In this document: positions 19,045 through 51,514 of the stretch, one piece after another
Position numbering within the stretch: the stretch's first letter is position 1
How the letters are laid out: each line of letters starts with the position of its first letter
Source of the DNA: a virus
Lineage: Duplodnaviria > Heunggongvirae > Uroviricota > Caudoviricetes
Virus record (IMG/VR): IMGVR_UViG_3300017971_000004
Coordinates: 64,001-128,000 of that record
Length of the DNA stretch: 64,000 bases
Strand: one strand, 5' to 3'
Notes under the pieces: model-generated
What the model was told of the DNA's origin: nothing
Database searches by the model: none
Seen by the model: the letters and a program-made list of their open reading frames with translations, nothing else
Translations under genes and position numbers: made by a program

Positions 19045-19078
19045 TGATAAATATCATAGAATGAGGGAGGCTGTCAAT
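19045..19078 (-). promoter_or_regulatory. sigma70-like promoter with extended core TATATTGACAG
   Basis: plus ctgtcaatat 19071-19080; minus orientation TTGACA - 17 - ATATTT. Confidence 0.45.
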
Positions 19079-19096
19079 ATAGAAAGAGTACTAGAG

Positions 19097-19822
19097 CTAC
19101 TTTTTCAGCCGTCTCGCGATGCGTTCCAACTGGCCGTCCCCGAGACCTTTCTTGTACCGACCTTGGCGGTCGAACTCCAGGTTTTCGTCCTCTTCCTCCT
19201 CCAGCCATCCGAGCGCCTTGAGGGCTTCCCCGATCTGCTCTTCGGAGGGATAGGAGCCGCCGGTATCGGTCCGATAATCCAGCGCATCCTGGTTGTTCTC
19301 CCACAGCCAGCCGAAGACCTTCTCCTCCCAGTCGTCCGGGGCTGTGTCGGAGACCATTGGGGCTTCCATTCGGATGTTCTCCAAGGTCTCCTCGTATTCA
19401 CGCCGGCTGACGTCTTCATCACTCAGTACGGGGTAGTCCATGAGCGCGCCGGCCAGCTCCTCCAGTTTCTGGCCAACATCCGTCAGCTCGCCGCTCGGCT
19501 CCAGGACGCGGACCGCGTACTCGCCGTTGTCGAGACGAACGAAGTCCTCGCTGGTGGGATCGATGCTGTTCAGCGTCTCGATGACCATCTCCATGTTCGA
19601 CTCGTCCCGGTGGGACATCATGTCCTTGTAGCCCTGAATGGTGGCCCACTGGTCGGCCTCGTCCCCTTCGAGACCGAGGTAATGGAAGATCGAGACCGGG
19701 CTCGTCTCCGGCGCGTAGTAGAGGCCGGCATCGCTGAGCAGTCCCCGGAACTCCATGATCTTAGGTTGAAGATCGCCTCGGTAGGTCTGCCGGTCATCGT
19801 CTTCCCAAATGTATCGAGGCAT
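19097..19822 (-). CDS. hypothetical acidic protein
   Basis: 241 aa ORF. Confidence 0.55.
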   Translation of the reverse strand: MPRYIWEDDDRQTYRGDLQPKIMEFRGLLSDAGLYYAPETSPVSIFHYLGLEGDEADQWATIQGYKDMMSHRDESNMEMVIETLNSIDPTSEDFVRLDNGEYAVRVLEPSGELTDVGQKLEELAGALMDYPVLSDEDVSRREYEETLENIRMEAPMVSDTAPDDWEEKVFGWLWENNQDALDYRTDTGGSYPSEEQIGEALKALGWLEEEEDENLEFDRQGRYKKGLGDGQLERIARRLKK

Positions 19823-20847
19823 CAGATTATCCCCTTCTTCCTTGCCTCGGACAATACACGTTCGCCGAGGTCTCTCGGGTACAGCTCCCCGATGTTGAGG
19901 ATCACGTCGATGGTGGAGTAGCCGCCATCCACCAGCGCCCGGATGTCGTTCATGACATCCGTGTAGCCGCTCTCCCCGATCCGCAGCATGTCTTCCTCGC
20001 TGTCCCAGCCTGGTCCGTTCTCCAGCGGAGAACCCGATTGGCGATAGGGCTCCAGCTCGCCGATGTCCATCCGAAGCGCCCCTTCGTGCAGGTAGGGACG
20101 CAAGGGCCTCTCCTTGCGAGGAGGTTTATCATCGGGGTCGACCGGCCCGGACGGGCGCGGAGCGCTCGTCTGCGTGTCCTGAGAGTGCGTGAGCGGGTCG
20201 TAGCGGGGAGTTCTGGGTCCTCCGCTGCCTGGTGACCACTCCGGCGTCTCCGGCTCCTGAGGGCCGAAATGAGCGAAGTCAGGGGCACGTACCTGCTTGG
20301 TGGTCGGATCCGGAGGATCGGAGAAGCTCGGGTTGTCCTCGTCGACATAGCCGGCGATGATGCGAGAGCCCCCGTGAGCCTTGATGGCCTTCTCCTGCTG
20401 GAGAGCGTCTTCCTTGGTCTCGTGCCGTCCCAGCAGCTTGGAGCCGTCGCTCGTATAGAGCCCCCACTCCTTCCCGCTGCCGTCCTTGTCCTCTTCCCGC
20501 AGCTTCTTGATCACGGCAGTCGTCGCCAGCCCCGTGGCCGGCTGGAGTGAGTAGTTCATCTCCAGCTCGGCGCTGTCCAGGGTCTCAACCCCTTCCGGAA
20601 CAGCGGCTCCGGCTTGATCCGCAGGCATCAGGACCGTGTTGGTGGTGTCCGGGGCGTTCTCCACGACGAGGTACTCGTTGCCCTCCGGGCCGTACACCGA
20701 CTGTCCTACCTGGAGCTGGCTCGGATCGAACGGCTGCTCTGTCTGGGAGTAGCGGCGCACCAGCTCGTGGAAGATGACTTCCGACCTCACCCGTCTCCTC
20801 CTGGTCGCTGCTCGCGACGGTTTCGCCATGAGTTCCATCTCCGCCAT
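19822..20847 (-). CDS. hypothetical protein
   Basis: 341 aa ORF. Confidence 0.55.
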   Translation of the reverse strand: MAEMELMAKPSRAATRRRRVRSEVIFHELVRRYSQTEQPFDPSQLQVGQSVYGPEGNEYLVVENAPDTTNTVLMPADQAGAAVPEGVETLDSAELEMNYSLQPATGLATTAVIKKLREEDKDGSGKEWGLYTSDGSKLLGRHETKEDALQQEKAIKAHGGSRIIAGYVDEDNPSFSDPPDPTTKQVRAPDFAHFGPQEPETPEWSPGSGGPRTPRYDPLTHSQDTQTSAPRPSGPVDPDDKPPRKERPLRPYLHEGALRMDIGELEPYRQSGSPLENGPGWDSEEDMLRIGESGYTDVMNDIRALVDGGYSTIDVILNIGELYPRDLGERVLSEARKKGII

Positions 20848-20896: not shown

Positions 20897-21691
20897 TCAG
20901 ATTTCATCGGTCTCCGCTCCGAGCCATTTAGCCACCCGAGTGATGTGCCGGTCGTACTTGAAAGACCTCGTGGATCGCGGATTTGACGTGGGCCAGAGTC
21001 TCCAAGGACGGGGGTGAGGCTTGCGGTCCCCGTTCAGCCCCACTGGGTTATTTACACTCCGCTTGGCCATTTCCTTCGCTGCCCAAATCATTCCGGGATC
21101 AAGCGAGAGAATCTGATCCAGGAGCTGCCGGCTGATGTCTCCCTTGCGGCGCACCTGAAGCGGGCCGAAGTCGGCCTTGATGCGGGTGCGCTGGAACTGT
21201 TTCGAGGAGATGATCTTGTAGATGGTCTCCCGATCGTAGGTGAGCTGGAGGTTCTTTACGAGCCCCTCGCTGACCGCCCACTCCCTGGTTTGAAGGTCGA
21301 TGGCGCAGACGTTGAAGCCGCTCTCGTTGTGGGCCACCGCCAGGACGCCCCACGGGTTCAGCTCGACGCCATGCTCTGCTTCGGCCTCATCGATGGACTT
21401 CAAGACCCAGGTCGCCCATTCGGACGCACGCTGCCGCCGCTTGGCATCGGTTTTGACGCGCTTGCCACACTCGTACCAGTACGGTTTTCGATCGCCATTC
21501 TTCTGCTTGATGCTCCGCGACTTCAAGACCGCCTGCACGAACCGGTCGTGCAAGCTCTCCTGTTTTGCTTCGGCCACGTCCGATCCCGCATCGATTGGCT
21601 GCGCCTCCAACGGGAGTCCCGCTTCATCGCCGAAAGCCCCGGTAACGACGAGCAGCGCCGCGAAGATGATGGCCAGAACTACATGTCTCAT
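20897..21691 (-). CDS. secreted lytic transglycosylase (SLT domain), candidate endolysin or virion-associated lysin
   Basis: N-terminal signal peptide MRHVVLAIIFAALLVVTGAFG; SLT catalytic motif AVAHNESGFN. Confidence 0.6.
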   Translation of the reverse strand: MRHVVLAIIFAALLVVTGAFGDEAGLPLEAQPIDAGSDVAEAKQESLHDRFVQAVLKSRSIKQKNGDRKPYWYECGKRVKTDAKRRQRASEWATWVLKSIDEAEAEHGVELNPWGVLAVAHNESGFNVCAIDLQTREWAVSEGLVKNLQLTYDRETIYKIISSKQFQRTRIKADFGPLQVRRKGDISRQLLDQILSLDPGMIWAAKEMAKRSVNNPVGLNGDRKPHPRPWRLWPTSNPRSTRSFKYDRHITRVAKWLGAETDEI

Positions 21692-21787: not shown

Positions 21788-22456
21788 TCAGATGCCGAAA
21801 GCATCCAGCTGGTCCTTCTTGCTGTTGTCGATCCAGTAGAACCGAGTGAAGCCTTTCCCGTCGTACTGCCGTCGCAGCGCGCGGTCGAGAACTTCTCCGA
21901 CCCAGTAGAACAGACAGTAGTCGGTGTAATCGGTACCCTTCCCGTCGAAGGAGAACCTCCGAACGAATTCGCCGATCTCGATGGGTGGACGCTCTCGGAA
22001 CAGGCGCATCCGTTTGATCGAGCCGGCGAAACCCACGCGCAGCAGGAAGACTGCCACCCCGGTCGGATGCAGAATGCTCAAGGACTTCCGAACGAACTCC
22101 TCGGCCAGAGAGTACGGCGGGTTCGTAGCGATGATGTCCCATCCTCCGTGCTCACGGACTTCAGAAGGAGTGTACTGCTCCCAGGGGGCCGTCAAGAAGT
22201 CCGTCCGATATCGGCGCTGCGGTTCCTCGGTGACTACCGACCAGTCGTCGATGATGTCGATACCTACCATCTCGCCGTCGTAGCCGATGTCGGCAGCCGA
22301 CTTGATAAAGGGGTAGGTGAGGCCGCATCCGGGTTCGAGGATGTGGAGCTTGTTCTCGTAGGGATGGAAGTCAGTGGCCCGCAAGAAGGCCCACTGCGCG
22401 TAGCGATACGGGGTCGGATAGAAGTCCCGTCCGCCCCCAGATGGATTTCTAGGCAT
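21788..22456 (-). CDS. N6-adenine DNA methyltransferase, gamma class
   Basis: motif X DFYPTP, motif I LEPGCGLTYPF, motif IV NPPY (IIATNPPYS) in gamma-class order; start at internal MPRNPSGGG. Confidence 0.7.
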   Translation of the reverse strand: MPRNPSGGGRDFYPTPYRYAQWAFLRATDFHPYENKLHILEPGCGLTYPFIKSAADIGYDGEMVGIDIIDDWSVVTEEPQRRYRTDFLTAPWEQYTPSEVREHGGWDIIATNPPYSLAEEFVRKSLSILHPTGVAVFLLRVGFAGSIKRMRLFRERPPIEIGEFVRRFSFDGKGTDYTDYCLFYWVGEVLDRALRRQYDGKGFTRFYWIDNSKKDQLDAFGI

Positions 22457-22604
22457 CGTTTCCTCCTGCACGCAATATACGGGATTGAAGATCGTTGACC
22501 CTGAAGAGAAGCTCACCGGACGGAGGGCAATCCGCATCCCAACTTCGGGTGACAAGTCCGAAGTTGGTGGTGAACCTCTCTTCGGGATCAACGATCCCGA
22601 GAGA

Positions 22605-23228
22605 TCAGAACGTACACTCCCCGTTCTCGGGGTCGCAGGTCACGCAGCCGCCCATGCACTGGACGGCGTACTCGTAGAAGCTCGTACAGACCGATCCCGG
22701 GTACATCTCCGGGCAATTGATGTACGTCTCCCAGGTGCCGGTCCAGGAGGCTGTGCAGCTGTCACTGGTGCCGTCGCAGTACTTGACCGCATCCATCTTC
22801 TGGAAGAGGTCCCCGCACTCCTCGTCGCACTGGTAGAAGGCCTCTTCCTCGCAGATGACCTCGTCCTCGGGTTCGAAGAAGTAGCACCCGTCGCAGCAGG
22901 GACCGGCCATGCATTCGCATCCGGTGTCGGTGTCAATATCGCTGTCCGTGCCGGTATCTGTATCGGTATAAGTATCCGTATCTGTAGAGGAATCAGTATC
23001 CGTATCAGCGTCCGTGTCGGTGTCGAGATCAGTCCCCGTATCCGTGGAAGTGTCCGTTTCTACATCGGAATCGGTGTCGGTGTCAGTATCTGTATCGGTG
23101 TCGGTATCCGTGTCGGAGTCGAGATCGGTCCCCGCGTCGTCATCCCATCCGCCGTCTGCCGGAGCCTCAATGCTGGTGTCATAGCAGCCGGCCAACATCA
23201 GAGCCATGCTCATGATCCAGGTTTTCAT
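22605..23228 (-). CDS. lipoprotein with long (Asp-Thr)n repeat region and C-terminal 14-Cys domain
   Basis: lipobox MALMLAGC; DTDTDTDTDTDTDSDVETDTSTDTGTD...; hexamer repeats visible at 22930-23130. Confidence 0.6.
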   Translation of the reverse strand: MKTWIMSMALMLAGCYDTSIEAPADGGWDDDAGTDLDSDTDTDTDTDTDTDTDSDVETDTSTDTGTDLDTDTDADTDTDSSTDTDTYTDTDTGTDSDIDTDTGCECMAGPCCDGCYFFEPEDEVICEEEAFYQCDEECGDLFQKMDAVKYCDGTSDSCTASWTGTWETYINCPEMYPGSVCTSFYEYAVQCMGGCVTCDPENGECTF

Positions 23229-23238
23229 CTGTCCCTCC

Positions 23239-24678
23239 TTACTCGAACTTCTTCGAGTCTACCACAGCGAGAGCCGCGCCGATGCGGCAGAGGCAGTCGT
23301 AGTAGTCCTCGCTGAGATGGTTGCCCGCGCTCTCGTGGCCCAGCTCATGGATGACGAGCCGAAGGATCGACTCGACCGGCCCGTTGAACCAAGCTCTCCC
23401 CAGGATCGCCACGTTGAACGCGATCCTCCGATGGCCGTACTGCGCAGCGCAGGTCGCGTCCGGGGATTCCATCATCGTGACCGTCACCCCGAAGTCGAAG
23501 GCAGCCCGCGACACTGCTTTCGAAAGGCGTTCGACCCGGTGCATCCCGGCGGTCCAATCATCGCGGGGAATGGTACGTCCATCCGCCACACCCTGCCGGA
23601 AGATCACCGAAGAAGCCGGAATGGCCTCGGCTTCCCGCATCCGCGCCCACTCTTCGCGGCTCATCTCCTTCGGTGAGACGACGTGGTACCCGTTGGCGAT
23701 CCCCCGTTCCCGTCCGTAGTCGTCGCCGGGAGTCAGGACCATGCGGCGTTCGCCCCATCGAAGATCGGCAATGGTAAGGAGCGCGTCGTGCTCGATGCGT
23801 TCGTCGGCGGCTCCGTCCCGCACCCATGCTTCGGAAGCATCTTCCTTGCGGAGCTGCGACACCATGACGTTGAGCACCTCGGCTCGCACGTCCTGGAGGA
23901 ACGCCGGCTGCACGTTATCCCGGTCGGAGTTCAAGGGAACGCGCTGACCGATGTTGTAGTGCCACCTGTCGCCCGTGGGCATCACCGGGATACCCAGCTC
24001 GTAGATACTGGGCTCCTCGCCAGGCGCGGGCTCGTAGACCTCGATGAAGGTCTTCCGACGCGTCTGTCGATACTGCCCCTCCTCGTTCTCGAACTCCGTC
24101 TGGAGCGTCACATCGTGGAGCACGTCGTCCGGCATCCGGGGCTCGACCGACTTGCCGTTCACCCGGTACTCGATCTGCTGCGGCATCAGGATCGTCTTGG
24201 CGACCCGAACGCACTCCTTGATCTCGTTCCGGGTCATCGGGATGTACGCCTCGAATACCGAGCCGCTGTCCCGCTTCACGCGCTTGCGCTCTTCCCGCGT
24301 CCCGTCCTCGTGGAAGACCACGGTTCCGGTCGTAGTCGAGACGGTCGCCTTCTTCGCCAGTGACAGGACCTGCTTGTCGCCCATGTTGAAGCGCCCGGCC
24401 TTGGTCGGATCCTTGCGCTTCCGCGTGTGGGCGAAGAGAGTGAAGGCGTGCCGCAGGTCGTAAAAACCTTCGGGCGCGTCGTCCGCGCAGACCACTTGGG
24501 CCAGCGGTTTCCCCGGTACCGGCTTGATGGTGAGCTTGCAGATGGTGACGCCCGCTTCGTCGCGGACGTTCTGCACCAGCTCCTTGACGATGAACGACTT
24601 CGGTCGGTGCTCGTTCATCTGGCCGAGACCGGCCTTGTCGGCCCCGAACCATCCTTTCTGTCGTTTTGCCATTGTCAT
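23239..24678 (-). CDS. GHKL-family ATPase with C-terminal HExxHx5H zinc-peptidase-like motif
   Basis: N-box ELVQNVRDE, G1 ADDAPEGF, G2 GRFNMGDK; C-terminal VIHELGHESAGNH. Confidence 0.55.
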   Translation of the reverse strand: MTMAKRQKGWFGADKAGLGQMNEHRPKSFIVKELVQNVRDEAGVTICKLTIKPVPGKPLAQVVCADDAPEGFYDLRHAFTLFAHTRKRKDPTKAGRFNMGDKQVLSLAKKATVSTTTGTVVFHEDGTREERKRVKRDSGSVFEAYIPMTRNEIKECVRVAKTILMPQQIEYRVNGKSVEPRMPDDVLHDVTLQTEFENEEGQYRQTRRKTFIEVYEPAPGEEPSIYELGIPVMPTGDRWHYNIGQRVPLNSDRDNVQPAFLQDVRAEVLNVMVSQLRKEDASEAWVRDGAADERIEHDALLTIADLRWGERRMVLTPGDDYGRERGIANGYHVVSPKEMSREEWARMREAEAIPASSVIFRQGVADGRTIPRDDWTAGMHRVERLSKAVSRAAFDFGVTVTMMESPDATCAAQYGHRRIAFNVAILGRAWFNGPVESILRLVIHELGHESAGNHLSEDYYDCLCRIGAALAVVDSKKFE

Positions 24679-24711
24679 TGCCCTCCTTGTTCGAACGAAT
24701 GATTCCGTCGA

Positions 24712-27093
24712 CTACTCGATCTCCTTTCTCTTCGCAGCCAGGCCCTCCAGGAACTCGATGACGCTGAGATGCTCCGGGATCTCCTCGCCGGCATTGACCG
24801 CGTCCACGATGTTGCCCTTCATCTTGATGAGTTCGACCATGTCCTCGTCGAAGGTGCCTTCGCCGTAGAGCCAGTACGAGTTGACCGATGAGGCCTTCGA
24901 GCCGATGCGGTGAACACGGGCCTCGGCCTGTTCCATGATGGCCATGTGCCAGCCGAACTCGACGAAGGCCACGCTGCTGGCGACCTGGAGGTTCAGCCCG
25001 AAGTTGGTAGCCTGCATGGAAGCGACCAGAACACGGCAGCTGTCATCGTTCCAGAACTTGTCCTTCGCGGCCTCGCGCTGCTCGTCGGAGTCGCCTCCCG
25101 AGATGGTGGCCGGATTGTAGTCAGTGAGCGCCTCGGCCAGCTGCTGCTGGATGTTCCGATGATGGGCGAAGACCACCAGCTTGCCGTCGTTGTCAAGGAA
25201 GTTCTTGATCCACTCGATGCAGCCGTTGAGCTTGTGCCTGACAGCGAGCTGGCGCAACCCGTTGATCCGAACCAGCGCCTCGGCGCGGTAGGCTTTGTCG
25301 AAGGCCTTCCGGGCATCATCCGTATCCAGAACGCCCCGTTCGATCTTCCGGTCGATGACCCATCGGACTACATCATCAACGGCTCTCCGGTATTCGGTGA
25401 CGCGGTCGATCTCGATGGGAACCTCGGTGCGCTGCAACGGGGGCAGCTCCTTGGCCACGTCCTTCTTCTCGCGGCGAACGTAGCAGCTGGCGCGCAGCTT
25501 CCGGGCCAGCTCCTCCAGGTTGGTCGCGCCGTTCATGTCCCAGCCGTACTGGGTGCGGGTCGCGCCGCAGTAGCGCCGCATGAACTTCCAGGCCCCTCCG
25601 AACTCCTTCAGACGATCCAGGAAGGCCAACTGGTTGACCAGCTCGACCGGGCGGTTGAGGAGGGGCGTCCCGCTCAGACAGAGACGGATCGGGATGTTCT
25701 TGGACAGCTCGATAGCGGCTTCAGAACGTTGGGCCTTCTTGTTCTTGACCTGCTGGCTCTCGTCGAGGACGATGGCCTTCCACGGAACGTCCTTGAGGCC
25801 GTCCAGGTGCTTCTTGAGGATGTCGTAGTTGATGATGACCACCTCACCCCCGTACTGGGTGAGATCGCCGCCAGAAACGACCTGAGCGCTTCTGGCGGGC
25901 AGCCAGCGCCGGACCTCCTGCGCCCACTGGAGCTTGACCGCCTTGGGAACGACCACGAGGGCCGGGTAGGCGTCCTCGGCCTGGAGCACGCCGAGGGCCT
26001 GGATGGTCTTGCCGAGTCCCATCTCGTCGGCGATGAAGCAACACTTGGTCTCAGTGGCGTACTTGATGCCTCCACGCTGGAAAGGACGGAGCTTCAGGTC
26101 GCCGCTTCCGAGGCCTTCGATCTCGATGTCGGCGTCGACCGCCTGGGAGGCGTGGATGCGCTCGCGGGTCGCCTTCTCCATCGTGGTGACCTCGTCGCGA
26201 AGGCCGGCTTCGACCCGGAGGTTGAACTCGTCCGCCAGCGCCAAGACCCTGCGCCCTGCCTCGACGGTCAGCGGGAAGTAGTTGACGTCCCGAGGACCAC
26301 CATTGCGTCCGGCCCAGTCGCGACCTTCGATGGTCTGCATCTTGTTGACGAGGGCCGGATCGTAGTCAGTCTTGGTGGCAATCCGGTCGCCATCGATCCA
26401 AACCTGCGGCTTCACAGCAGCATCCGCTTCCTCAGCGAGGATGGCACTGACCTTCTCGTCAAGCACCGCGCGATCGGCCCCGGAGATGATGAAGCCGAAG
26501 TCCTCGATGATGGCGGGAAGGAGCTTAAGGCCAGCGTCCCGCATCCTCCAGAAACTGCCCATCCACTTGCGGTCGGCCCAGGCAGCTTCCTTGATGCGGT
26601 CGATCAGCTCGTAGTTCTTGGGGCTGTACAGCTCGAAGTGGTTCTCGCGCTCGTTGTAGACGGCGACCATCTGCTTCTTGTAAGTGAGCAGGTAGGATGG
26701 GAGCGCCGTCTCGCCGCGTTGGACCTTCTCCAAGTCGACCTTGGCCTGGGCGCGCTCGGCCTTGGTTTTCATCGCCTTGGAGACTTCGCCGCGCTTCGGC
26801 TCGCGCTCCCAGTTGACCTTGACCTTGGGAAGCGCGTCCACGTCGACACCGTAAGCCTCCAACTGACCTCGATACTTGGTGAGCATGTTACGGACGACGT
26901 GACAGGTCTCGGCGTCCCACTCGCTCGGGTCGACCCAGGCGATGTAGTTGCCGAACGACTGATCCGGCTTGTTGAAGCCGTGGTCGTCGCGGGTCATTGC
27001 GCCATCGCACACGGCGGATAGCCTGGAGCAGGCATCCTTGAGGATGGCGGCAGCCTCGGTGATTTCAATGGTCATGTTGTCAGTGCCCTCCTT
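24712..27093 (-). CDS. SNF2-family helicase (start at MKEGTDNMTIEITE, about 27093)
   Basis: DEMGLGKT, LSGTPLLNRP, helicase C motifs; upstream part of ORF to 27399 is out-of-context junk overlapping the promoter. Confidence 0.8.
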   Translation of the reverse strand, partial: KEGTDNMTIEITEAAAILKDACSRLSAVCDGAMTRDDHGFNKPDQSFGNYIAWVDPSEWDAETCHVVRNMLTKYRGQLEAYGVDVDALPKVKVNWEREPKRGEVSKAMKTKAERAQAKVDLEKVQRGETALPSYLLTYKKQMVAVYNERENHFELYSPKNYELIDRIKEAAWADRKWMGSFWRMRDAGLKLLPAIIEDFGFIISGADRAVLDEKVSAILAEEADAAVKPQVWIDGDRIATKTDYDPALVNKMQTIEGRDWAGRNGGPRDVNYFPLTVEAGRRVLALADEFNLRVEAGLRDEVTTMEKATRERIHASQAVDADIEIEGLGSGDLKLRPFQRGGIKYATETKCCFIADEMGLGKTIQALGVLQAEDAYPALVVVPKAVKLQWAQEVRRWLPARSAQVVSGGDLTQYGGEVVIINYDILKKHLDGLKDVPWKAIVLDESQQVKNKKAQRSEAAIELSKNIPIRLCLSGTPLLNRPVELVNQLAFLDRLKEFGGAWKFMRRYCGATRTQYGWDMNGATNLEELARKLRASCYVRREKKDVAKELPPLQRTEVPIEIDRVTEYRRAVDDVVRWVIDRKIERGVLDTDDARKAFDKAYRAEALVRINGLRQLAVRHKLNGCIEWIKNFLDNDGKLVVFAHHRNIQQQLAEALTDYNPATISGGDSDEQREAAKDKFWNDDSCRVLVASMQATNFGLNLQVASSVAFVEFGWHMAIMEQAEARVHRIGSKASSVNSYWLYGEGTFDEDMVELIKMKGNIVDAVNAGEEIPEHLSVIEFLEGLAAKRKEIE

Positions 27094-27104
27094 CATTGTC
27101 TCTA

Positions 27105-27137
27105 GATATATCACGAGAGTATGGGACCTGTCAATAT
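27105..27137 (-). promoter_or_regulatory. sigma70-like promoter, extended core TTTTTATATTGACAG, driving the SNF2 operon
   Basis: plus tgtcaa 27129-27134; -10 ATATAT about 27105-27111. Confidence 0.5.
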
Positions 27138-27162
27138 AAAAAAAGCCCACCCTAAGAAGAGA

Positions 27163-27200
27163 AACCGGGCGGCGCGGGAGGGCAAGACCTACGCCGCCCG
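27163..27200 (-). terminator. hairpin terminator for gene 27212..28048
   Basis: 10-bp GC stem CCGGGCGGCG...CGCCGCCCGG followed in minus orientation by a T-rich tract. Confidence 0.5.
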
Positions 27201-27211
27201 GCGATGGAAGG

Positions 27212-28048
27212 CTACTTTCCGAGACCTTTCCGAATCTGGACATGCTCCGAGTCGCGCTCACCGTCCTGGTAATGCTTGACTCCGGTATGCTTCGCACGAG
27301 GACGTGGCTTCTTCTCCTCAGGATCTTCGAATCCCTTCGACCGGAGCCATGCCTTGGCGATGCCTTCGTATCGAACAGCCAGCGCGGTGATCTGCTCACC
27401 TTGCTCGGACGCCTCCTCCTGCTCCTTCAGCTCCTTGAGACGCTTGGCGAAACCAAACACAAGTCCTTCACGGTACTCGCGCTTGGCCGCGTTCCGATAC
27501 GACTCGAAGGTTTTGTAGTAGTAGCGTCCCAGACTGCTCATCAGCTGTCGCATCAGGCCGCGTTGCCGGTCTGGATTCTCCCACTCGGCGCGGTCGACAT
27601 GATATTTCCGGGACAGCTCTCTGATCTGGTTGAAGACCGACTGGAAGGCGTAAGCTGCCATCGAGGCGTTGAGTTTCACCCCGTAGAACATCAGTCGCCC
27701 ACCAGTCCAGTAGGTGGGCTCGATGTAGGTCACCGAAGCGTCCATATAGTCGGCCACCACGATAGCCAAGGACAAGGCCCACTTAGCAGTCTGCTTGGTC
27801 TTCATGTCGATGACCACCCCATCCGCCTCCGGCCCCTGAGCGGCTCCAGGAGCGCCCACGACCTCGACGTCCTCCATCTCCAGGCCGTACTGGAGCATCA
27901 GCCTCCGCGCCAGCTCCAGGGCAGCCTGGGCTTCGTGGTCGACGTCCTCTGGCTTCTCCGCGTTCCGGACAGCGTTCTCGGCCCGGTTGAAGAGCAGCTG
28001 GACGCGCTCGATGACCTTCTTCAGCTTGTCTGGATCAACTTCGGGCAT
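27212..28048 (-). CDS. hypothetical protein with DUF2786-like N-terminal helix
   Basis: KLKKVIERVQLLFNRAENAVRNAEKPEDVDHEAQAALELARRLMLQYGL resembles the DUF2786 consensus. Confidence 0.45.
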   Translation of the reverse strand: MPEVDPDKLKKVIERVQLLFNRAENAVRNAEKPEDVDHEAQAALELARRLMLQYGLEMEDVEVVGAPGAAQGPEADGVVIDMKTKQTAKWALSLAIVVADYMDASVTYIEPTYWTGGRLMFYGVKLNASMAAYAFQSVFNQIRELSRKYHVDRAEWENPDRQRGLMRQLMSSLGRYYYKTFESYRNAAKREYREGLVFGFAKRLKELKEQEEASEQGEQITALAVRYEGIAKAWLRSKGFEDPEEKKPRPRAKHTGVKHYQDGERDSEHVQIRKGLGK

Positions 28049-28355
28049 CGCAGTCGCATTCTTCCGTTCGTGGCTTCCCGCAAGTCGCGCACCACCGGGC
28101 TTCACTATGGACCTGTTCGATCCATGCCACGGTCTCGGCCCAGCTTTCGTTGCCCCGTTGATGGGGCCACGCCCTCTCTCCTTTCGCGAGCGCGTTCGTG
28201 ATGGCAGTTATTTCCTCGATGATTTCCTCGCGCTTCTTCTCCACATAGTAGTCGATGAGCTGTTCCGGCGTCGCGTCGTAGACGATAATGTCATCCACGA
28301 TAGTAGAGAAGATGGCGAACTTGCCGCTTGGCATCTTGACGATTCGATGACCCAT
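28035..28355 (-). CDS. hypothetical Cys-containing protein
   Basis: 112 aa ORF trimmed to MGHRIVKMPSG. Confidence 0.4.
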   Translation of the reverse strand: MGHRIVKMPSGKFAIFSTIVDDIIVYDATPEQLIDYYVEKKREEIIEEITAITNALAKGERAWPHQRGNESWAETVAWIEQVHSEARWCATCGKPRTEECDCDARS

Positions 28356-28891
28356 CAGTCCGCCATCCCCCACAGGATGTCCAGGGCGCGCTTGTAACGC
28401 CGCTCGATGCTGCGCTCCTGCTCGGGCAGCCCCTCGATCCGGGAAAGGTTGTCCTGGAGATCAGCGAGCTTCACGCGCAGCGCGATGCGCGCCGCCTCCT
28501 GCATGTCTGAATTCGGGTACACCGACTTGCTGGCTTCCTTGATCGACCGGATGTACTGGACATAGGTCGGTCGATGCACCCCGGCTTCCGCAGGCGGACG
28601 AGTGAGCAAACGGACCGCCTCGACGACGCTGACGCTGAATCCTTCGATACGCAGGTCTTCCGGCGTGGCGTCAGTGTCTTCGCAGACATCGTGAAGCACC
28701 GCGACTTTCATCGCATCCAGATCCGGCCCGAGAATCGGCAGTCCGACGCCTTGTCGATTCTCTTTCCAAGCTACCGCCACCATGACGCGGAGCGGATGCA
28801 GGATGTAGGGATGCCCCTGCTTGTCGACTTGGCCTGCGTGAGTATTGGCGGCAAGCTCGATGGCTCGCTCGATTGATCCGTCCCGTCTCAT
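28355..28891 (-). CDS. HD-domain (p)ppGpp hydrolase-like protein (small alarmone hydrolase)
   Basis: RelA/SpoT hydrolase motifs AANTHAGQVDKQGHPYILHPLRV and AVLHDVCEDT. Confidence 0.6.
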   Translation of the reverse strand: MRRDGSIERAIELAANTHAGQVDKQGHPYILHPLRVMVAVAWKENRQGVGLPILGPDLDAMKVAVLHDVCEDTDATPEDLRIEGFSVSVVEAVRLLTRPPAEAGVHRPTYVQYIRSIKEASKSVYPNSDMQEAARIALRVKLADLQDNLSRIEGLPEQERSIERRYKRALDILWGMAD

Positions 28892-29097
28892 TTTTTCATT
28901 TACCTTCTTCTTGAAGCTGTTCCATCCAACGATTAACCAGCGCACTCCAAACTTCATCAGATTTATATGTAGGAGTTAAAGGAATCTCCCCAAATACCTC
29001 GAAAAAACGAATCTTGAATTTTTTGGGGGACAATAACTGACTTGTGGTAAGTTTAAGTTTTTTTTCCTTCTAAGTAGAACTCGTAAAAAGATGGCTG

Positions 29098-29157: not shown

Positions 29158-30216
29158 TTACCACTCCTCTTCGCAGTTATTGCAATAGTACCGAGGCTCG
29201 TCATCCTCGGCATCCGGGTTCGCATCCTCGATGCCAGTGCTGCCGCAGGCCGGGCAACGCACCGTGTCATCGTCCGCGTCCTCTTCGTCGTCCGCCCTAT
29301 CGTCAATGTCGTCGACGTGATACGCGCGGTTCTCCTTCTGCCGGTAGTCCTCCGCGAAGGTGTAGAGTTCTTCCTTCATCTTCCGCTCGACGGCCACCAT
29401 CTTGTCCCAAAGGTCGGGGTCGCGGAGCGCCTGGACGGCCTCGGTCACCAGCTGATCGAGGGCCTTGGGCTCGACCGCGTCCAGCTCCCAGCTGGAGTCG
29501 CCGTACTGCTCGATGTACTTGTCGGCGCGGGAGTCGGTCAACTTGGCCGGGTTCTCGGGAGGCCGGAGTTCCTCGACCTGGGAGTACTTGAGCGCCAGCC
29601 GCTCGAAGGTCACCGGGTGCCCCGAGAACAGCGAGAGGCGCTCCTCCACATCACGGTCCATGTCCAGACCGCTGGGGTCGTGGTCGCCCAGGTACAGGAT
29701 GTGGATGCGCTTGTCGTCGTTCTTGTAGAGCCGCTTCAGCCGCTGCCCTATACGGTACATCATCGACTGGCTGGAGTAGCCCTTGTTGGCCGTGAAGTTC
29801 ACGTCCAGGCGACGGCAGACGGGGATGAGGACGCCTTCGAGCGCCTGCTTCTCCACCATGACCTCGATGTGGTTCGACTGCCCCTCCCACTTGTCGATAG
29901 CGAAGGAGCGCGCCGCCGCCTCGATGATGTCCGCCGGGCTGTCCCAGTGCGACGGCGACTCAGTCTTGCGGCCACGGTCGACGATCATGTCCCAGTCGAT
30001 CAGCCCGGCCATGCGCGCGTCGTTCACGAGCGTCCCGAGCGTCTTGTACTCCTTCTGGTTGTTCGGGATGATGTCCTTGGACACCAGCTGATAAAAGAGT
30101 TGCCGCAACGTCAGGTCGTAGCCCTGAGCCTTGTAGCTGTCCAGAATCGCGTTGATGGTTTGGAGCAGCTGGAGCTTATCATCTCGAAAGTCCCGCTCGA
30201 TGAATGCTTGTTTCAC
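29158..30216 (-). CDS. Spo11/TopoVI-A-like protein (winged-helix with candidate catalytic Tyr plus Toprim) with acidic linker and C-terminal zinc ribbon
   Basis: LRQLFYQLV (compare Spo11 VRDIFYSNV), Toprim VMVEKQAL, KGY, GDHDPSG; C-terminal CPACG...CNNCE. Confidence 0.5.
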   Translation of the reverse strand: MKQAFIERDFRDDKLQLLQTINAILDSYKAQGYDLTLRQLFYQLVSKDIIPNNQKEYKTLGTLVNDARMAGLIDWDMIVDRGRKTESPSHWDSPADIIEAAARSFAIDKWEGQSNHIEVMVEKQALEGVLIPVCRRLDVNFTANKGYSSQSMMYRIGQRLKRLYKNDDKRIHILYLGDHDPSGLDMDRDVEERLSLFSGHPVTFERLALKYSQVEELRPPENPAKLTDSRADKYIEQYGDSSWELDAVEPKALDQLVTEAVQALRDPDLWDKMVAVERKMKEELYTFAEDYRQKENRAYHVDDIDDRADDEEDADDDTVRCPACGSTGIEDANPDAEDDEPRYYCNNCEEEW

Positions 30217-30238: not shown

Positions 30239-30270
30239 GATTCTTAACATATGCTGAGGGTTCTGTCAAT
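30239..30270 (-). promoter_or_regulatory. sigma70-like promoter, core TTTTTATATTGACAG, upstream of the Spo11-like gene
   Basis: plus tgtcaa 30264-30269; -10 TAAGAAT about 30240-30246. Confidence 0.45.
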
Positions 30271-30281
30271 ATAAAAAGATA

Positions 30282-47129: not shown

Positions 47130-47683
47130 TTCTTCCCGAGAGGACGAACATTTTCGGCGCGGAGATCCGGAGGCATCCCTTCGACAATCTGGATGTCGGA
47201 GTCCATCCCGATGATGGTCTTGACCGCCAGCTCATACTCGCCGGCCAGCGCTACATCATGGGGCCGGTTGGCCTTCATCACGTAGAGAGACTTGACCTTG
47301 AAGAACATCCAGTCCAACGGACTCAAGATCGTGAAATGCTTGGAGAACTGAGGACCGATGGCCTTGATCCGCTTGGTCTCAGGATCAATGTCGATTGGAA
47401 TCTCCGCGAACATCAACGGTTGGTAGACAGGAAGGAGGCCATCGTCCAGCTCACGGATTCCACCCATGATGGCCCGAGCGTTCACAGTCAGGATCACCAT
47501 CACGGTGCTCTCATTGTACGGATTGCGGATCGCCCGCATGTCGAAGGTACGCTCCAACCAGTCGACGAACTCTTCTTCTTCCTCAGGACCATCGATCCGC
47601 CTGTGAGGATTGCTCGTATCCTCTGAGTGGCTCATTGAGATACTCCTAACGTGGTGATTCCATTCTGTTTTCTGGCAATCCAA
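47126..47683 (-). CDS. hypothetical protein
   Basis: 185 aa ORF. Confidence 0.5.
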   Translation of the reverse strand: MDCQKTEWNHHVRSISMSHSEDTSNPHRRIDGPEEEEEFVDWLERTFDMRAIRNPYNESTVMVILTVNARAIMGGIRELDDGLLPVYQPLMFAEIPIDIDPETKRIKAIGPQFSKHFTILSPLDWMFFKVKSLYVMKANRPHDVALAGEYELAVKTIIGMDSDIQIVEGMPPDLRAENVRPLGKK

Positions 47684-49713
47684 ACTTCGCTGAAAGGCAG
47701 CAGATCGTTAACGTGCCCGCTGTTGTCTGTTACCAAAGCAGTCGCCGCCTGGAGGTTGGTGAAGCTGTCCACGAGCCGTTGGGAATTGGTGATGTCCACG
47801 AAGGCGAAGATCTCATCGAGCAGGATCAGGTTGCATCCGTGGCCGCTTTGAAGAGCAATCTCGTGAAGTGCCCGGATCAGCGCGTTGGCGATCTTGGCGG
47901 TCTCGCCATCCGAATAAAGTCGTGGATCGATATTTTTCGGACCGTCGACGATCTCGACCTTGACCTCGGACTTCAGAAGATCCTTGATGTCGGCAGCTCC
48001 CCGGCTCGACTTCTTTTCCCCGAAGGACGAGATGTTGACCCGGATAGTATCGCCCATAGCGGCCAGGTTCTGGTTCACCTTGTCAGACAGACCGCTCATC
48101 GCCACCGAGAGTCGGTGCAGCTTGATGTAGGGGATGTTGGAGATGAGCCATTCCAAGATGATCAAGTCTGACTTCGAGGACGAGATAGAAGATTCCATTT
48201 CGGTGATCTTCGAGGTTCGGGTCTCAACGGCCTCCTGAAGGTCTTTGATGTCCTGGAGCGCTTTCTGCGCCTGCTGAATCCAGTTCTGGATGGAGACCGT
48301 CTCCGTCCGGTAGCCACCGAGCTGCTGCTGAAGTTGAGAGATCTGGAAAGTGAGCTGCCGGATTTCCTCGGTGAGACGCTCATACTCCGAGTTGCTCGCC
48401 TGCATCTGAACTTTCTTCTCTTCGATCTGCTTGGCAATCTCGTCCGCCTTGACCTTCATCTCCGTGTAGGCCTTGGCGCGAGCATCTTGAACTTCCCGAT
48501 GATGAGCGTCCCGACGTTCGACGGCCTCCTGGTATTGAACCTCCAAGCTGGCAACTTCGCCCTGGAGATGCTTCAGATGTTTCTCGATCTCGGTCTTCCT
48601 GGTCTTGGTGATCTTCGCCCCGCAAGTTGGACAGGATTCGAAGTCTCGAAGATCTCCGTCACGGAGGAAGACAGTAATCGCACCCTTGGCTACATCGACC
48701 TTCGAGCGCATGTTCTGAACCTGCTGCTCGAAGCTGGGGTCGAAGTTCGGCAGGATCTCCTCCAGGTTCCCAGGATTCCGAATCCGAGCCTCCTCCTGCG
48801 CCAGGTCCGAGATCTCCTGAGAGAGTCCGCTGATGCCGCTTCTGGCGTAGATGTCGCGCTGCTGCTGCGAGAGACGTTCCGCATCGGCACCGTGGCCTTG
48901 GATCTGCTCCTCGACCGCTGCGGATGCCTTCGTCACCTCGGTCAGCTGCTGATGGAACCGATGCTCTTGCGCAGCCCAGTCGGTCTGCTCGAACTGCGCA
49001 AGCCGCTGGCGCAATTCTTGCCGAGCCCCGGTCTCGTAAGCAATCTTCTCCTGAGTCTCCGCCACGGTCTTCTGTAGAACGGCCTTCTCGGCACGAGACC
49101 GCGCGAGGATGTGGTCCCACTCCTCGACTCCGGTGATACCGGCGAGGATGTCGATACGTTCCTTGTTGGTACCGCGCAGGAACCGATAGCCCACTCGCTG
49201 GCTCAGGTAAGAGATGGAGACGAACCTGGAGTAGGTGATGCCGAGGGCCTCCGTGATGCGCTTGCGCGTCTCGGACATCGAAGAGCCGCGCTCGTCGAGC
49301 CATTGCTCCCCATCGTAGCGTTCGAAGAAGAGAGAAGTTCCTTTGTAGACAACGCCGTTGTCGGTGTCGATGGCGTAGAACTCGTCCTTCCAGTCACGGC
49401 ACGAAGTCACCCGGTAGTAGATGCCGTCGTCCCCAATGAACTCTACGCGGCCCGCATAACCTCTCTCCCAGACGTCGTTGACGACGCCGTTGCCGCTGAC
49501 CCCGGTCGGGTTCTCGCCGTAGAGGATCTCGCACAGGGCGTTGAACAAGCTGCTCTTTCCGGACCCGTTCGAATCGCCACCGATATCATCGTTCACCCCG
49601 ATCAGGTTCACGAGCCCCCTCCGCTCGACATCGATGTTGGACGAACTCCCGTAGGAGAACATGCCGGTCGGGTTGATGTAGCGGATCGTCAACATCAGGG
49701 CTTGACCTTCCAC
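47632..49713 (-). CDS. sbcC: SbcC/Rad50-like ATPase (recombination nuclease subunit, gp46-like)
   Basis: Walker A GDSNGSGKSS, long coiled-coil middle, C-terminal LILLDEIFAFVD. Confidence 0.75.
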   Translation of the reverse strand: MEGQALMLTIRYINPTGMFSYGSSSNIDVERRGLVNLIGVNDDIGGDSNGSGKSSLFNALCEILYGENPTGVSGNGVVNDVWERGYAGRVEFIGDDGIYYRVTSCRDWKDEFYAIDTDNGVVYKGTSLFFERYDGEQWLDERGSSMSETRKRITEALGITYSRFVSISYLSQRVGYRFLRGTNKERIDILAGITGVEEWDHILARSRAEKAVLQKTVAETQEKIAYETGARQELRQRLAQFEQTDWAAQEHRFHQQLTEVTKASAAVEEQIQGHGADAERLSQQQRDIYARSGISGLSQEISDLAQEEARIRNPGNLEEILPNFDPSFEQQVQNMRSKVDVAKGAITVFLRDGDLRDFESCPTCGAKITKTRKTEIEKHLKHLQGEVASLEVQYQEAVERRDAHHREVQDARAKAYTEMKVKADEIAKQIEEKKVQMQASNSEYERLTEEIRQLTFQISQLQQQLGGYRTETVSIQNWIQQAQKALQDIKDLQEAVETRTSKITEMESSISSSKSDLIILEWLISNIPYIKLHRLSVAMSGLSDKVNQNLAAMGDTIRVNISSFGEKKSSRGAADIKDLLKSEVKVEIVDGPKNIDPRLYSDGETAKIANALIRALHEIALQSGHGCNLILLDEIFAFVDITNSQRLVDSFTNLQAATALVTDNSGHVNDLLPFSEVWIARKQNGITTLGVSQ

Positions 49714-49958
49714 ATCTCGTCGATCATGTCGCAGATGACCTTCTTCGCTTCTTCGGGACCACCGTTCACTCCCACCATCGACGTGTGGAACGCCCGCGCC
49801 TGCGTGTCCCCCACCTTCGCGACCGAGACGATCCGGGAGTCGTTCCAGAGAACGTGCTGCGGAGGAAGCACGGCCAAGCTGAAGACAAAGGTATGCTCCT
49901 GGACGAGTTCGCCACCGAGCGAAAAGATGGTGCCCTTCGGCCCTATCTGGTCAGACAT
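49695..49958 (-). CDS. hypothetical protein
   Basis: 87 aa ORF. Confidence 0.4.
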   Translation of the reverse strand: MSDQIGPKGTIFSLGGELVQEHTFVFSLAVLPPQHVLWNDSRIVSVAKVGDTQARAFHTSMVGVNGGPEEAKKVICDMIDEMWKVKP

Positions 49959-50209
49959 CAGATTCCCCCTCGATCAAAGATGGCCACGCGGTGAACGTTC
50001 TGCTTGATGTCCCACTTCTTGAGCTTGCCGCCGCAGGTGCACTTCATCGTCGGATGGATCTCGGGCTTCTCCTCGGTGTCGTTGAACAAGTCCTCGTACT
50101 GCTTGTCACACTTTACGCACTTATAGCCGACCATCCGCATTTCAACTCTCCTGCATCTTCCGGACCATTTCGAAGATCTTGTTCTTCGAAAGGTTGCCGA
50201 CATCGGCAA
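49958..50209 (-). CDS. zinc-ribbon protein
   Basis: CVKCDK...CTCGG. Confidence 0.4.
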   Translation of the reverse strand: MPMSATFRRTRSSKWSGRCRRVEMRMVGYKCVKCDKQYEDLFNDTEEKPEIHPTMKCTCGGKLKKWDIKQNVHRVAIFDRGGI

Positions 50210-51239: not shown

Positions 51240-51514
51240 GAGCTTTCCCCCTCCACTCTAAGCGGCGTCGAGTTCACCACGGTCAGGAAGGTCACCAAGA
51301 ACGGGAAGATGTCATCAACGAACTCGTGAAGCTTCTCACCAATCTCCTCTTTGGAAACTCCGGCATGCACTTCCGGAGACGTCTTCAGAAATCGCAAAAC
51401 GATGTACTTGCACAAGACATCGATATCCTCGGTGAGCAGCTCCTCGTCGAGCTTGTGGAGATGGTCCTTGACTACCTGGAGGTAGCCGTCACCGGGATCA
51501 GACAAAGTACCCAT
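51236..51514 (-). CDS. hypothetical protein
   Basis: 92 aa ORF. Confidence 0.4.
   Translation of the reverse strand: MGTLSDPGDGYLQVVKDHLHKLDEELLTEDIDVLCKYIVLRFLKTSPEVHAGVSKEEIGEKLHEFVDDIFPFLVTFLTVVNSTPLRVEGESS

Follow-up and report, generated by a model that had tools for sequence, protein, structure and literature searches.

A probable hypervariable accessory-gene slot and a predicted GHKL ATPase-zinc protease fusion in a large uncultivated phage

Restriction-modification (R-M) operons of prokaryotes can combine MORC/paraMORC GHKL ATPases with methylases and SNF2 helicases (PMC2292703), and the 'GHKL plus C-terminal effector' logic is that of MutL-endonuclease and paraMORC-HEPN (PMC3710099). 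ArdC, a plasmid anti-restriction protein, consists of an ssDNA-binding domain and a Spartan-like metalloprotease (PMC7213743). In the polyvalent proteins of phages and conjugative elements, the zincin MPTase, the SWI2/SNF2 ATPase and the N6A DNA methylase are central hub domains, read as counter-restriction, and GHKL or Hsp90-like domains are not mentioned (PMC5512222). Phage rIIA combines a GHKL N-domain with a variable C-terminal domain and has a counter-defence role, and jumbo phages carry uncharacterised zincin peptidases that have been proposed for maturation (PMC7824862).

The window analysed here, 64,000 nucleotides of a phage contig that is at least 188 kb long, places the three activities of the polyvalent proteins side by side, but in separate genes that are gained and lost independently. 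Its GHKL protein shares the N-box, the adenine-binding Asp, motif IV and the Q-(R/K) transducer loop with MutL, MORC, paraMORC and topo II. It differs from MutL, MORC and topo II in its effector, a predicted zincin protease, in its divergent G1/G2 boxes and in its context, since the components of a MORC/paraMORC R-M operon (nuclease, methylase, SF2 helicase) provide no conserved neighbour in 160 loci and the window block holds no nuclease. Like ArdC, it is a mobile-element protein with a putatively nucleic-acid-directed N-terminal module, a C-terminal zincin, early expression and a place among DNA-handling genes; unlike ArdC, it has no ArdC-N and its N-terminal module is an ATPase, and an anti-restriction activity would follow by analogy. 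DISARM is represented by generic DrmD-like SNF2 matches only (PADLOC 115 bits; NCBIfam 51-64 against cut-offs of 610-950), with DrmA, DrmB and DrmC absent. Among the BREX components PglX, PglZ, BrxC and BrxA/B/L, the defining set is not present, and PglX, PglZ and BrxC are absent from the block.

Gene order and transcription signals

The four open reading frames lie head to tail on the minus strand at 21788-27096, as the sequence-only reading had it (Table 1). Their co-directionality is uninformative because nearly all window genes are on this strand; DNA polymerase, clamp loader and SbcCD are encoded within the same window. The gaps, given earlier as 12-34 nt, measure 39 nt (33 nt from the first ATG of the GHKL open reading frame), 10 nt and 148 nt.

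Table 1. Positions of genes and signals in and around the slot.
Feature	Position (strand)	Description
DUF2786/DUF7168 gene	27212..28048 (-)	Backbone, upstream side of slot; Pfam DUF7168 2.9e-18, DUF2786 2.7e-09
Terminator-like hairpin	27153..27202 (-)	12-bp GC stem plus UUUCUCUUCUU
Promoter-like motif	27105..27139 (-)	TATATTGACAG, 18-nt spacer, TGnTATATC; after terminator-like hairpin
SNF2-family DNA helicase	24712..27096 (-)	794 aa; slot gene; alternative start 27075 after AAGGAGGG
GHKL-zincin	23239..24672 (-)	GHKL ATPase, S5 transducer, helical linker, Wss1-like HExxHx5H zincin (predicted); probable start ATG 24672, 477 aa; ORF from 24678 (479 aa)
Lipobox (LAGC) protein	22605..23228 (-)	Asp/Thr repeats and Cys-rich C-terminal domain
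Structured RNA leader	22469..22600 (-)	About 130 nt; long stem with 3-way junction, directly upstream of methyltransferase
Gamma-class N6-adenine DNA methyltransferase	21788..22456 (-)	222 aa, without target-recognition domain; backbone
264-aa secreted protein	20897..21691 (-)	Backbone; syntenic with methyltransferase in L008, L094, L095, L096
p341 and p241	19097..20847 (-)	Backbone

The terminator-like hairpin upstream of the block (MFE -37.2 kcal/mol, z -3.8) is kept in the related phages L008 and L090, and its loop contains UUGCCCUCC, the complement of the phage Shine-Dalgarno sequence GGAGGGCAA. A terminator scan of the minus strand from 20.5 to 28.5 kb called no site, and this hairpin is likewise missing from its list. 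For the strong sigma70-like promoter claimed at 27105-27137, the perfect TTGACA and the conservation of the motif stand, with CTATATTGACAGG (motif yTATATTGACAG) invariant in four related phages. The -10 element departs from the consensus TATAAT and can be read as TATATC or ATATAT; it is a TGn-extended TATATC in the window versus TATAAG in the relatives, and a sigma70 scanner calls nothing. Minus-strand copies of the motif occur at 27127, 19070 and 30262, together with one on the plus strand, a total of 4 versus 0.49 expected for the window. Because the next copy downstream lies only at 19070 and the hairpin is the sole terminator-like site on the minus strand between 20.5 and 28.5 kb, the transcription unit probably comprises seven genes rather than the proposed four-gene operon behind one promoter. 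The p341 and p241 genes probably belong to the same unit, which would end before the promoter-like motif at 19070-19082.

A variable slot between backbone genes

In the relatives, the backbone runs from DUF7168 through the slot to the methyltransferase, the 264-aa protein and p341, and DUF7168 homologs lie beside the slot in L008, L090, L094, L096 and L097. Set out in full, the conserved backbone would read DUF7168, terminator and promoter, slot, structured leader, orphan gamma-class N6A methyltransferase, secreted 264-aa protein, p341 and p241. The slot holds SNF2, GHKL and lipoprotein genes in the window and in L090/L098, only the GHKL gene in L008 (82% identity, with clean indels), SNF2 with an 84-aa and a 197-aa gene but no GHKL gene in L096, and four different genes, an RNA ligase among them, in L094. 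It is empty in L097, where the methyltransferase stands alone. The slot is variable and its genes are autonomous.

The SNF2 gene, missing from L008, encodes an ordinary phage DNA helicase. Both SNF2-rel_dom (1.9e-33; 116.2 bits, cut-off 24.9) and Helicase_C (41.2 bits, cut-off 23.5) exceed the Pfam thresholds, the protein matches phrog_62 at 1.3e-102, and homologs occur in 586 phage records, the top matches listed being annotated as DNA helicase. Assignment to DrmD, ZorD or DpdE was rejected, the matches being to the generic helicase core and far under the family cut-offs (51-131 bits in NCBIfam against cut-offs of 500-1500).

The lipoprotein assignment also stands: the signal peptide, as read from the sequence, ends in LAGC and agrees with the lipobox pattern [LVI][ASTVI][GAS]C (MKTWIMSMALMLAG followed by C), and D/T repeats and a Cys-rich domain follow. 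The gene is a clean indel of about 650 nt relative to L008 and is present in L098. Its Cys-rich domain has a single homolog among 5.8e9 proteins. It is an orphan, moron-like insert, possibly for exclusion or surface modification.

On the backbone side, the methyltransferase has the gamma-class motif order X (FYxTP), I (ExGxG), IV (NPPY), in the form DFYPTP, LEPGCG and TNPPYS conserved in 58 homologs, and its catalytic domain folds most like known DNA methyltransferases of that class, the one read earlier from its sequence. A target-recognition domain is absent: NPPY occupies residues 112-115 of 222, and in the AF2 model the C-terminal residues that remain, about 110, are taken up by the rest of the Rossmann-type catalytic fold. 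Family members measure 180-240 aa. In contrast to M.TaqI/Eco57I/HsdM-type enzymes, this one has only 222 aa and hence no target-recognition domain, lacks a cognate nuclease and has no S-subunit gene beside it. Homologs of this small orphan enzyme occur in 460 phage records, and its most likely task is to protect the phage's own DNA by methylation. A TTG start at 22591 is wrong, as the 148 nt upstream of the ATG at 22456 are non-coding (1-nt indel relative to a related phage). The leader in this interval (MFE -76.1 kcal/mol, z -6.2) has 44 pairs, 12 of them with compensatory changes across four phages, and no match in Rfam. It travels with the methyltransferase, setting that gene apart from those upstream, and methyltransferase expression is most likely controlled or processed through it. 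The next gene downstream had been named a lytic transglycosylase; its product has no Pfam (even at E = 1), PHROG or PDB sequence match, so that membership in SLT or another such family is unsupported.

This comparison bears directly on the proposal that the four genes form one MORC-, DISARM- or BREX-like system acting together in modification, anti-restriction or exclusion. In its favour, one conserved promoter-like motif probably drives transcription of all four genes, which are neighbours on the same strand, the lipoprotein and the trio of other genes are all retained in one 89%-identical relative, and the MORC/paraMORC operons cited above also count for it. Within the same lineage, however, each gene is found without the others: GHKL without SNF2 or lipoprotein in L008, SNF2 and methyltransferase without GHKL in L096, and methyltransferase alone in L097. 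SNF2 lies within 6-8 kb in only 7 of 160 further independent GHKL-zincin loci, and the methyltransferase in none. The block contains neither a nuclease nor any further core defence gene, PADLOC matches only the generic SNF2 core, NCBIfam scores stay far below their cut-offs, and the methyltransferase is separated by its own leader. With the genes non-syntenic in relatives and the methyltransferase an orphan, an outcome that the sequence-only reading had itself named as a refutation, such a system is highly improbable and largely refuted by comparative genomics. The genes are probably co-transcribed in this phage and could still cooperate.

Fold and distribution of the GHKL-zincin family

The sequence-only reading had described the second gene product as a GHKL ATPase with an HExxHx5H tail, in a fusion that it recognised from no described system. 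At the level of fold and motif, it is identified as a Bergerat-fold ATPase followed by a ribosomal-S5-like transducer and a C-terminal zincin (AF2 model, pLDDT 92.9). Residues E33, N37, D40, D66, G95, G100, K102 and H444-E445-x-x-H448-x5-H454 are invariant in 56 homologs. The N-box ExxxNxxD, which supplies the catalytic Glu and an Mg-binding Asn, takes the invariant form E33-L-V-Q-N37-x-x-D40, and the adenine-binding Asp, motif IV (TTTGTVxF) and the transducer Q-(R/K) loop are conserved. The ATP-lid G1/G2 boxes are non-canonical in this branch (DDAPEGF, GRFNMGDK), so that ATP turnover is putative, with D66, G71, G95 and G100 invariant in the 56 homologs. A cyanobacterial plasmid protein of about 30% identity has the same architecture, its boxes being the canonical DNGSG and GRFGRG and its zincin motif HEAAHx5H. 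The window protein does not match Pfam HATPase_c/HATPase_c_3, for which the best family values are 4e-05 to 9e-06 with bit scores under the gathering cut-offs. The helical linker showed no recognisable DNA-binding domain. In members of about 750 aa, an intein is inserted exactly at the Q245 loop.

The predicted protease has a minimal zincin fold, HExxH with a third His five residues on, and this invariant ligand spacing is that of Wss1. In contrast to Wss1/SPRTN, the WLM and SprT-like DNA-dependent metalloproteases, it is fused to a GHKL ATPase rather than to ubiquitin/SUMO- or DNA-binding modules, and Pfam WLM is nowhere above threshold, with weak matches in only 4 of 56 members (best E-value 0.0039).

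Several findings argue against an ordinary ATPase subunit of the type II topoisomerase or gyrase B kind: identity is only 11-13%, Toprim is missing, a zincin occupies the C-terminus, topoisomerase models of Pfam and NCBIfam do not match, and no A-subunit partner is conserved nearby. The chance that the protein is such a subunit is close to nil. An rIIA-like protein, whose GHKL ATPase and variable C-terminus would guard the phage against abortive infection and exclusion encoded by prophages or the host, finds many RIIA structural matches in BFVD (E 1e-10 to 1e-6). These span the generic GHKL module only, at 9-15% identity and TM 0.3-0.4, and the RIIA-annotated matches listed are 618-966 aa long. 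No conserved rIIB-like partner lies beside the gene and the PHROG rIIA family is not matched, which makes this assignment improbable.

The family comprises about 2,400 clusters at 50% identity, with 218 IMG/VR contigs, many of 90-460 kb, and 146 GTDB matches. Its architecture is constant at 470-510 aa across 2,427 cluster representatives, and members are annotated 'hypothetical protein'. PADLOC, PHROGs, Pfam and NCBIfam gave no significant match to the fusion and literature searches did not find the combination, in agreement with the earlier claim; one widespread gene joins a GHKL ATPase to a Wss1-like zinc protease, apparently a fusion not described before. Across the 160 loci, no neighbour cluster recurs in more than 10 (about 6%), and the lipoprotein, the 264-aa gene (LT264) and DUF7168 occur, like the methyltransferase, in none. 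Among 149 flanking ORFs, no Pfam, PADLOC or PHROG family appears in more than 2; the neighbours mostly encode DNA polymerase, SSB, recombinase, dUTPase, methylases and ligase. Some members are located in bacterial chromosomes, and the one on the Methylibium plasmid RPME01 has phage-like surroundings. GHKL-zincin is an autonomous single-gene family.

Proposed role of GHKL-zincin

The fold analogy to DNA enzymes (MutL, MORC, topo II, Wss1) and the DNA-metabolism neighbours point to a link with DNA. Hsp90 and sacsin, which act on proteins and not on DNA, match almost equally well, and Wss1 is no closer than minigluzincins and M48-like proteases. Together with the jumbo-phage zincin peptidases, these count for a protein-directed chaperone-protease that would serve host takeover, quality control or virion maturation and have no DNA role. 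However, the surroundings of the gene in the window, as at most of the 160 loci, are genes for DNA metabolism and accessory genes instead of those for structure or assembly, and the HExxHx5H spacing with the following LSxxYH helix is closer to WLM than to maturation proteases. A chaperone-protease is therefore considered unlikely.

For an ATP-gated protease acting on DNA-bound proteins, the following steps are proposed. Like MutL, MORC and topo II, the protein would shut a dimer gate at its N-terminus once its Bergerat-fold domain binds ATP, and the S5 transducer would read the gamma-phosphate through the invariant QRVPLNxDRDN loop. The ATPase cycle would place the C-terminal Wss1-like Zn protease onto a DNA-bound or cross-linked protein. 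Proteolysis may then shield the DNA of the element from host DNA-binding defence or repair proteins, by analogy with ArdC or SPRTN/Wss1. A counter-restriction role is plausible for the individual genes; SNF2, N6A methylase and zincin are hub domains of polyvalent proteins (PMC5512222).

In conclusion, the reading favoured as a whole, with reasonable though not high confidence, is that the region is a hypervariable accessory-gene slot within a long minus-strand operon of DNA-handling genes, that it holds here three independently mobile genes (a phage SNF2 helicase, a GHKL-S5-zincin enzyme and a lipoprotein moron), and that GHKL-zincin would act as an ATP-gated protease on DNA-bound proteins, probably in counter-defence.

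Gene order and the variable slot

Between 19.1 and 28.0 kb every real gene lies on the minus strand, like most of the window. The source phage is a metagenomic contig of at least 188 kb and is without a close cultured relative, since blastn of the block formed by the SNF2, GHKL-zincin, lipoprotein and methyltransferase (MTase) genes against phages gave only short matches to the SNF2 core. The sequence-only reading, which had described these genes as one four-gene operon and a possible system, is largely right as an observation, with corrections to the MTase start and the gap before it, the promoter, the extent of the unit and a downstream 'lytic transglycosylase', for which family support was not found. 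Its domain calls for SNF2, the 479-aa protein and the MTase are borne out by Pfam and PHROG matches, an AlphaFold model, invariant catalytic residues and motif order.

Features of the SNF2-GHKL-MTase region, in window positions
Feature	Position	Strand	Basis or detail
DUF2786/DUF7168 gene	27212-28048	minus	Pfam
Terminator-like hairpin upstream of SNF2	after DUF7168 gene	minus	GC-rich stem, U-rich tail, z -3.8
Promoter-like motif TATATTGACAG-N18-TATATC	27105-27139	minus	sequence
SNF2 gene	24712-27096	minus	
GHKL-zincin gene	23239-24672	minus	477 aa from second ATG
Lipoprotein gene	22605-23228	minus	SD overlaps stop codon of preceding gene
Non-coding leader, 148 nt	between lipoprotein gene and MTase	minus	
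MTase gene	21788-22456	minus	ATG 22456 behind CAGGAGG
Secreted 264-aa protein gene	20897-21691	minus	
p341 and p241 genes	19097-20847	minus	
Next promoter-motif copy	19070-19082	minus	

The AAGGAGGG ribosome-binding site of the GHKL-zincin gene suits the second ATG, and the contig gene caller agrees; residue numbers here follow the translation of the 479-aa ORF. The gaps between the genes had been taken as short throughout. One of them is instead a structured non-coding element, because the MTase starts at ATG 22456 and the conserved 148 nt upstream carry a frame-breaking indel relative to a related phage. This indel rules out TTG 22591 as the MTase start.

The sequence yTATATTGACAG occurs on the minus strand of the window at 27127-27139, 19070-19082 and 30262-30274, upstream of gene starts, and is invariant in four related phages; relatives carrying it include the contigs L008, L090 and L096. 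A promoter at 27105-27139 is a reasonable inference because of this invariance and repetition, but the strength once ascribed to it is not borne out: the -10 regions downstream of the copies are non-canonical, and the promoter scanner makes no call at this site, where a canonical -10 is missing. Transcription probably continues past the MTase through three further genes instead of ending after four. Their products, the 264-aa protein, p341 and p241, have no Pfam, PHROG or PDB family match.

Upstream of the DUF7168 gene lie a gene for an HD-domain protein (28355-28957, weak HD_4 match) and one for a protein of 352 aa that ends with an acidic tract and a CxxC...CxxC zinc ribbon (29158-30216), both kept in L090, the closest relative. 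On the same strand, positions 47632-60153 hold a replication and recombination module, consisting of a DNA polymerase (phrog_17), a clamp loader (phrog_5846) and SbcC- and SbcD-like nuclease subunits. Near this module, PHROGs match none of several very large ORFs (1278, 810 and 607 aa).

A tblastn comparison of contigs that encode GHKL-protein and MTase homologs shows six versions of one backbone, differing in the slot between the DUF7168 gene and the MTase. SNF2, GHKL and lipoprotein genes fill the slot in the window and in L090 with L098/L099 (89% / 77% identity). In L008 (82%) GHKL stands alone: 466 unrelated nucleotides replace the SNF2 gene, and the lipoprotein gene is gone as a clean indel of ~650 nt (L008 3428-3448). 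L096 carries SNF2 and two small genes, without GHKL; L094 carries four unrelated genes, an RNA ligase gene among them; in L097 the slot is empty, the leader and MTase directly following DUF7168. As slot contents vary among relatives, it is the 264-aa and p341 genes downstream, and neither SNF2 nor GHKL, to which the MTase is linked. In the related phages examined, the 264-aa signal-peptide protein and p341 are syntenic with the MTase in four, and p241 in three.

At distant GHKL-zincin loci the neighbours are unrelated. A survey of 160 further loci (80 GTDB genomes and 80 IMG/VR contigs, 6-8 kb flanks) finds SNF2 in the flanks of 7, and the MTase family, the lipoprotein, the 264-aa protein and DUF7168 in those of none. 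No neighbouring ORF cluster recurs in more than 10 of the 160 loci, and at most 2 of the 149 nearest ORFs belong to any one Pfam, PADLOC or PHROG family. Phages commonly carry members of the SNF2 family (586 records) and of the MTase family (460 records). With the slot comparison, the 160 loci and the commonness of these two families all speaking against it, a system-level interpretation of the four genes is not supported. The sequence-only reading had itself named such an outcome as its refutation. The GHKL-zincin has single-gene autonomy, and the case illustrates that a plausible-looking 'SNF2 + GHKL + methylase' cluster may arise by chance where a phage has a hot spot, a caution for system discovery by adjacency.

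SNF2 matches Pfam SNF2-rel_dom and Helicase_C above threshold and phrog_62 ('DNA helicase', 1.3e-102), with no family match for its N-terminal ~330 residues. Its DrmD, ZorD and DpdE matches in PADLOC and NCBIfam represent the helicase core, far under the family cut-offs; it is an ordinary phage DNA helicase of the variable-slot kind. The lipoprotein gene is a clean moron-type insertion, essentially without relatives. For its Cys-rich C-terminal domain a single homolog turned up among 5.8 billion proteins, a match that gives no clue to host or function, and a role in exclusion or surface modification is a guess. The MTase exhibits the gamma-class motif order, with homologs matching PF07669 and M.TaqI, M.BseCI and HsdM as nearest folds. 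A target-recognition domain is absent, and the enzyme is most simply an orphan self-protection methylase; a PDB sequence search returned nothing for it or for the 264-aa protein.

The leader of the methyltransferase gene

Directly upstream of the MTase start, positions 22469-22600 (minus strand, ~130 nt) form a 29-bp lower stem and a three-way junction, with an MFE of -76.1 kcal/mol (z -6.2). Copies are located at L008 3447-3578, L098 374-504 and L097 2234-2375, and the leader accompanies the MTase whatever gene stands upstream. In the four phages, pairing is kept in 95% of cells and compensatory changes affect 12 of 44 pairs, where shuffles give 5.4 ± 1.7 and slid controls no more than 8. The element is an RNA structure, since G-U pairs occur on the sense strand only. 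It may serve as an RNase III site or a translational operator. Rfam gave no match across 20.8-27.4 kb, leader included. A scan of IMG/VR with the leader's invariant 17-mer yielded 26 loci, none of which scored above noise with a covariance model of the four copies (best 16 bits, E 0.23); they were taken as chance, not as further copies.

UUGCCCUCC is exposed twice, in the leader's invariant small hairpin and in the terminator loop ahead of SNF2. These loops are complementary to the phage's GGAGGGCA(A) ribosome-binding sites, the Shine-Dalgarno of the SNF2 and GHKL genes. As putative anti-Shine-Dalgarno loops, they hint at SD sequestration or RNase III processing. TTGCCCTCC has 6 copies in the window, against 0.71 expected. 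Two are on the minus strand, at 22522-22530 (MTase leader) and 27177-27185 (terminator before the SNF2 promoter), both in hairpin loops; the plus-strand copies are at 14898, 20678, 24678 and 32618. At 24678-24686 the match is a GGAGGGCAA ribosome-binding site, belonging to a minus-strand gene, in reverse complement, and the other three may likewise be reversed ribosome-binding sites. The enrichment as a sign of a repeated regulatory site is largely deflated, with at least one of the four plus-strand matches so explained, and only the two minus-strand copies stay notable.

The GHKL-zincin family

The GHKL-zincin consists of the two-domain ATPase module of the MutL, MORC, topo II and Hsp90 class and a Wss1-like zincin, joined by a helical linker (about residues 258-360). 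The 479-aa protein itself has no significant match in Pfam, PHROGs, PADLOC or NCBIfam. Its homologs give weak but consistent matches to HATPase_c, SACS and HATPase_c_3 at the N-terminus and to WLM at the C-terminus; the AlphaFold model, with 56 homologs as input, reaches a pLDDT of 92.9, and the catalytic residues of both domains are invariant. Readings as a topoisomerase or as a rIIA-like protein fail, contradicted by this architecture and by the partners.

With clusters formed at 50% identity, a profile search retrieves 2,427 representatives at E <= 1e-3 (1,224 at E <= 1e-30); among the 150 best matches listed, nearly all are 470-510 aa long and align end to end. Carriers are phages up to 460 kb, prophages or chromosomes, and plasmids of Planctomycetota, Proteobacteria, Actinobacteria, Verrucomicrobia, Acidobacteria, Cyanobacteria and other phyla. 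In IMG/VR, 218 viral contigs encode a relative, and many of them measure 90-460 kb; in GTDB species genomes of many phyla, 146 stretches encode one, the closest being in Planctomycetota MAGs. Among 50,697 deposited phage records, tblastn of the protein finds one match, in the unannotated record of an uncultured 485-kb phage. Plasmid relatives are annotated 'hypothetical protein' or 'ATP-binding protein' in RefSeq, and a literature search found no paper describing the fusion. The family, ~2,400 clusters at 50% identity isolated here as a large unannotated group with no entry in Pfam, PHROGs, PADLOC or NCBIfam, is apparently undescribed and widespread.

A cyanobacterial plasmid member keeps the whole architecture at ~30% identity over the N-terminal ~290 residues aligned by tblastn. 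Its ATP-lid boxes are canonical (DNGSG and GRFGRG), and it carries HEAAHx5H; a standard GHKL site is therefore the origin of the unusual DDAPEGF and GRFNMGDK boxes seen in the phage branch. On plasmid pAQ6 of Picosynechococcus sp. PCC 7002 (L206 5412-11883), a divergent GHKL-zincin of 519 aa, its G1 and G2 boxes canonical, is flanked by a small gene with a DisA nucleotide-binding domain and a gene for a 1,378-aa CHAT-domain protease. This may be another kind of context for the architecture, one resembling a conflict system.

Three members of ~750 aa (P0163, P0203 and P0253) contain an intein, read from a Cys start, a LAGLIDADG-like block and an HN|C end; Pfam finds no domain in the inserted segment. 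Inteins favour catalytic sites of DNA-metabolism enzymes. The insertion lies exactly before the invariant Q245 of the transducer loop QRVPLNxDRDN and would therefore mark this loop as functionally critical. By position, the loop would contact the gamma-phosphate, like the QTK loop of GyrB or the transducer Lys/Arg of MutL and Hsp90. The intein and the covarying leader, a small new RNA motif, are small, testable discoveries.

Proposed action on element DNA

GHKL-zincin genes reside in DNA-metabolism and accessory regions of mobile elements. ATP would drive dimerisation or clamping, bringing the protease to proteins that bind the element's DNA or are cross-linked to it, in a role of counter-defence or adduct removal. 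The main rival is a protein-directed chaperone-protease, similar to Hsp90 or sacsin. The proposed DNA-directed action has a parallel in ArdC, where a DNA-binding domain is coupled to a Spartan-like protease and type I restriction is overcome (PMC7213743), and a second one in polyvalent proteins with their zincin hub (PMC5512222). Hub domains of these counter-restriction proteins include SNF2, zincin and N6A methylase (PMC5512222), and since the trio mirrors them, the region may be a loose counter-defence toolkit, a likeness of theme, not a system.

A bolder reading, which we regard as rather unlikely, would make the GHKL-zincin a new class of ATP-gated DNA-clamping protease, a stand-alone counter-defence gene of phages, prophages and plasmids across many bacterial phyla, and, separately, the leader a new cis-regulatory RNA whose anti-Shine-Dalgarno loop UUGCCCUCC gates MTase expression. 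Such a protease would remove or degrade host proteins on the invading DNA, for instance complexes of restriction enzymes, nucleoid or defence sensors, and adducts of protein with DNA. If true, the GHKL-zincin would be the first example of a protease driven directly by a Bergerat ATPase. An ATP-driven protease for DNA-bound proteins would link the clamp mechanism of MutL and MORC to Wss1/SPRTN-type proteolysis and represent a new kind of mobile-element counter-defence.
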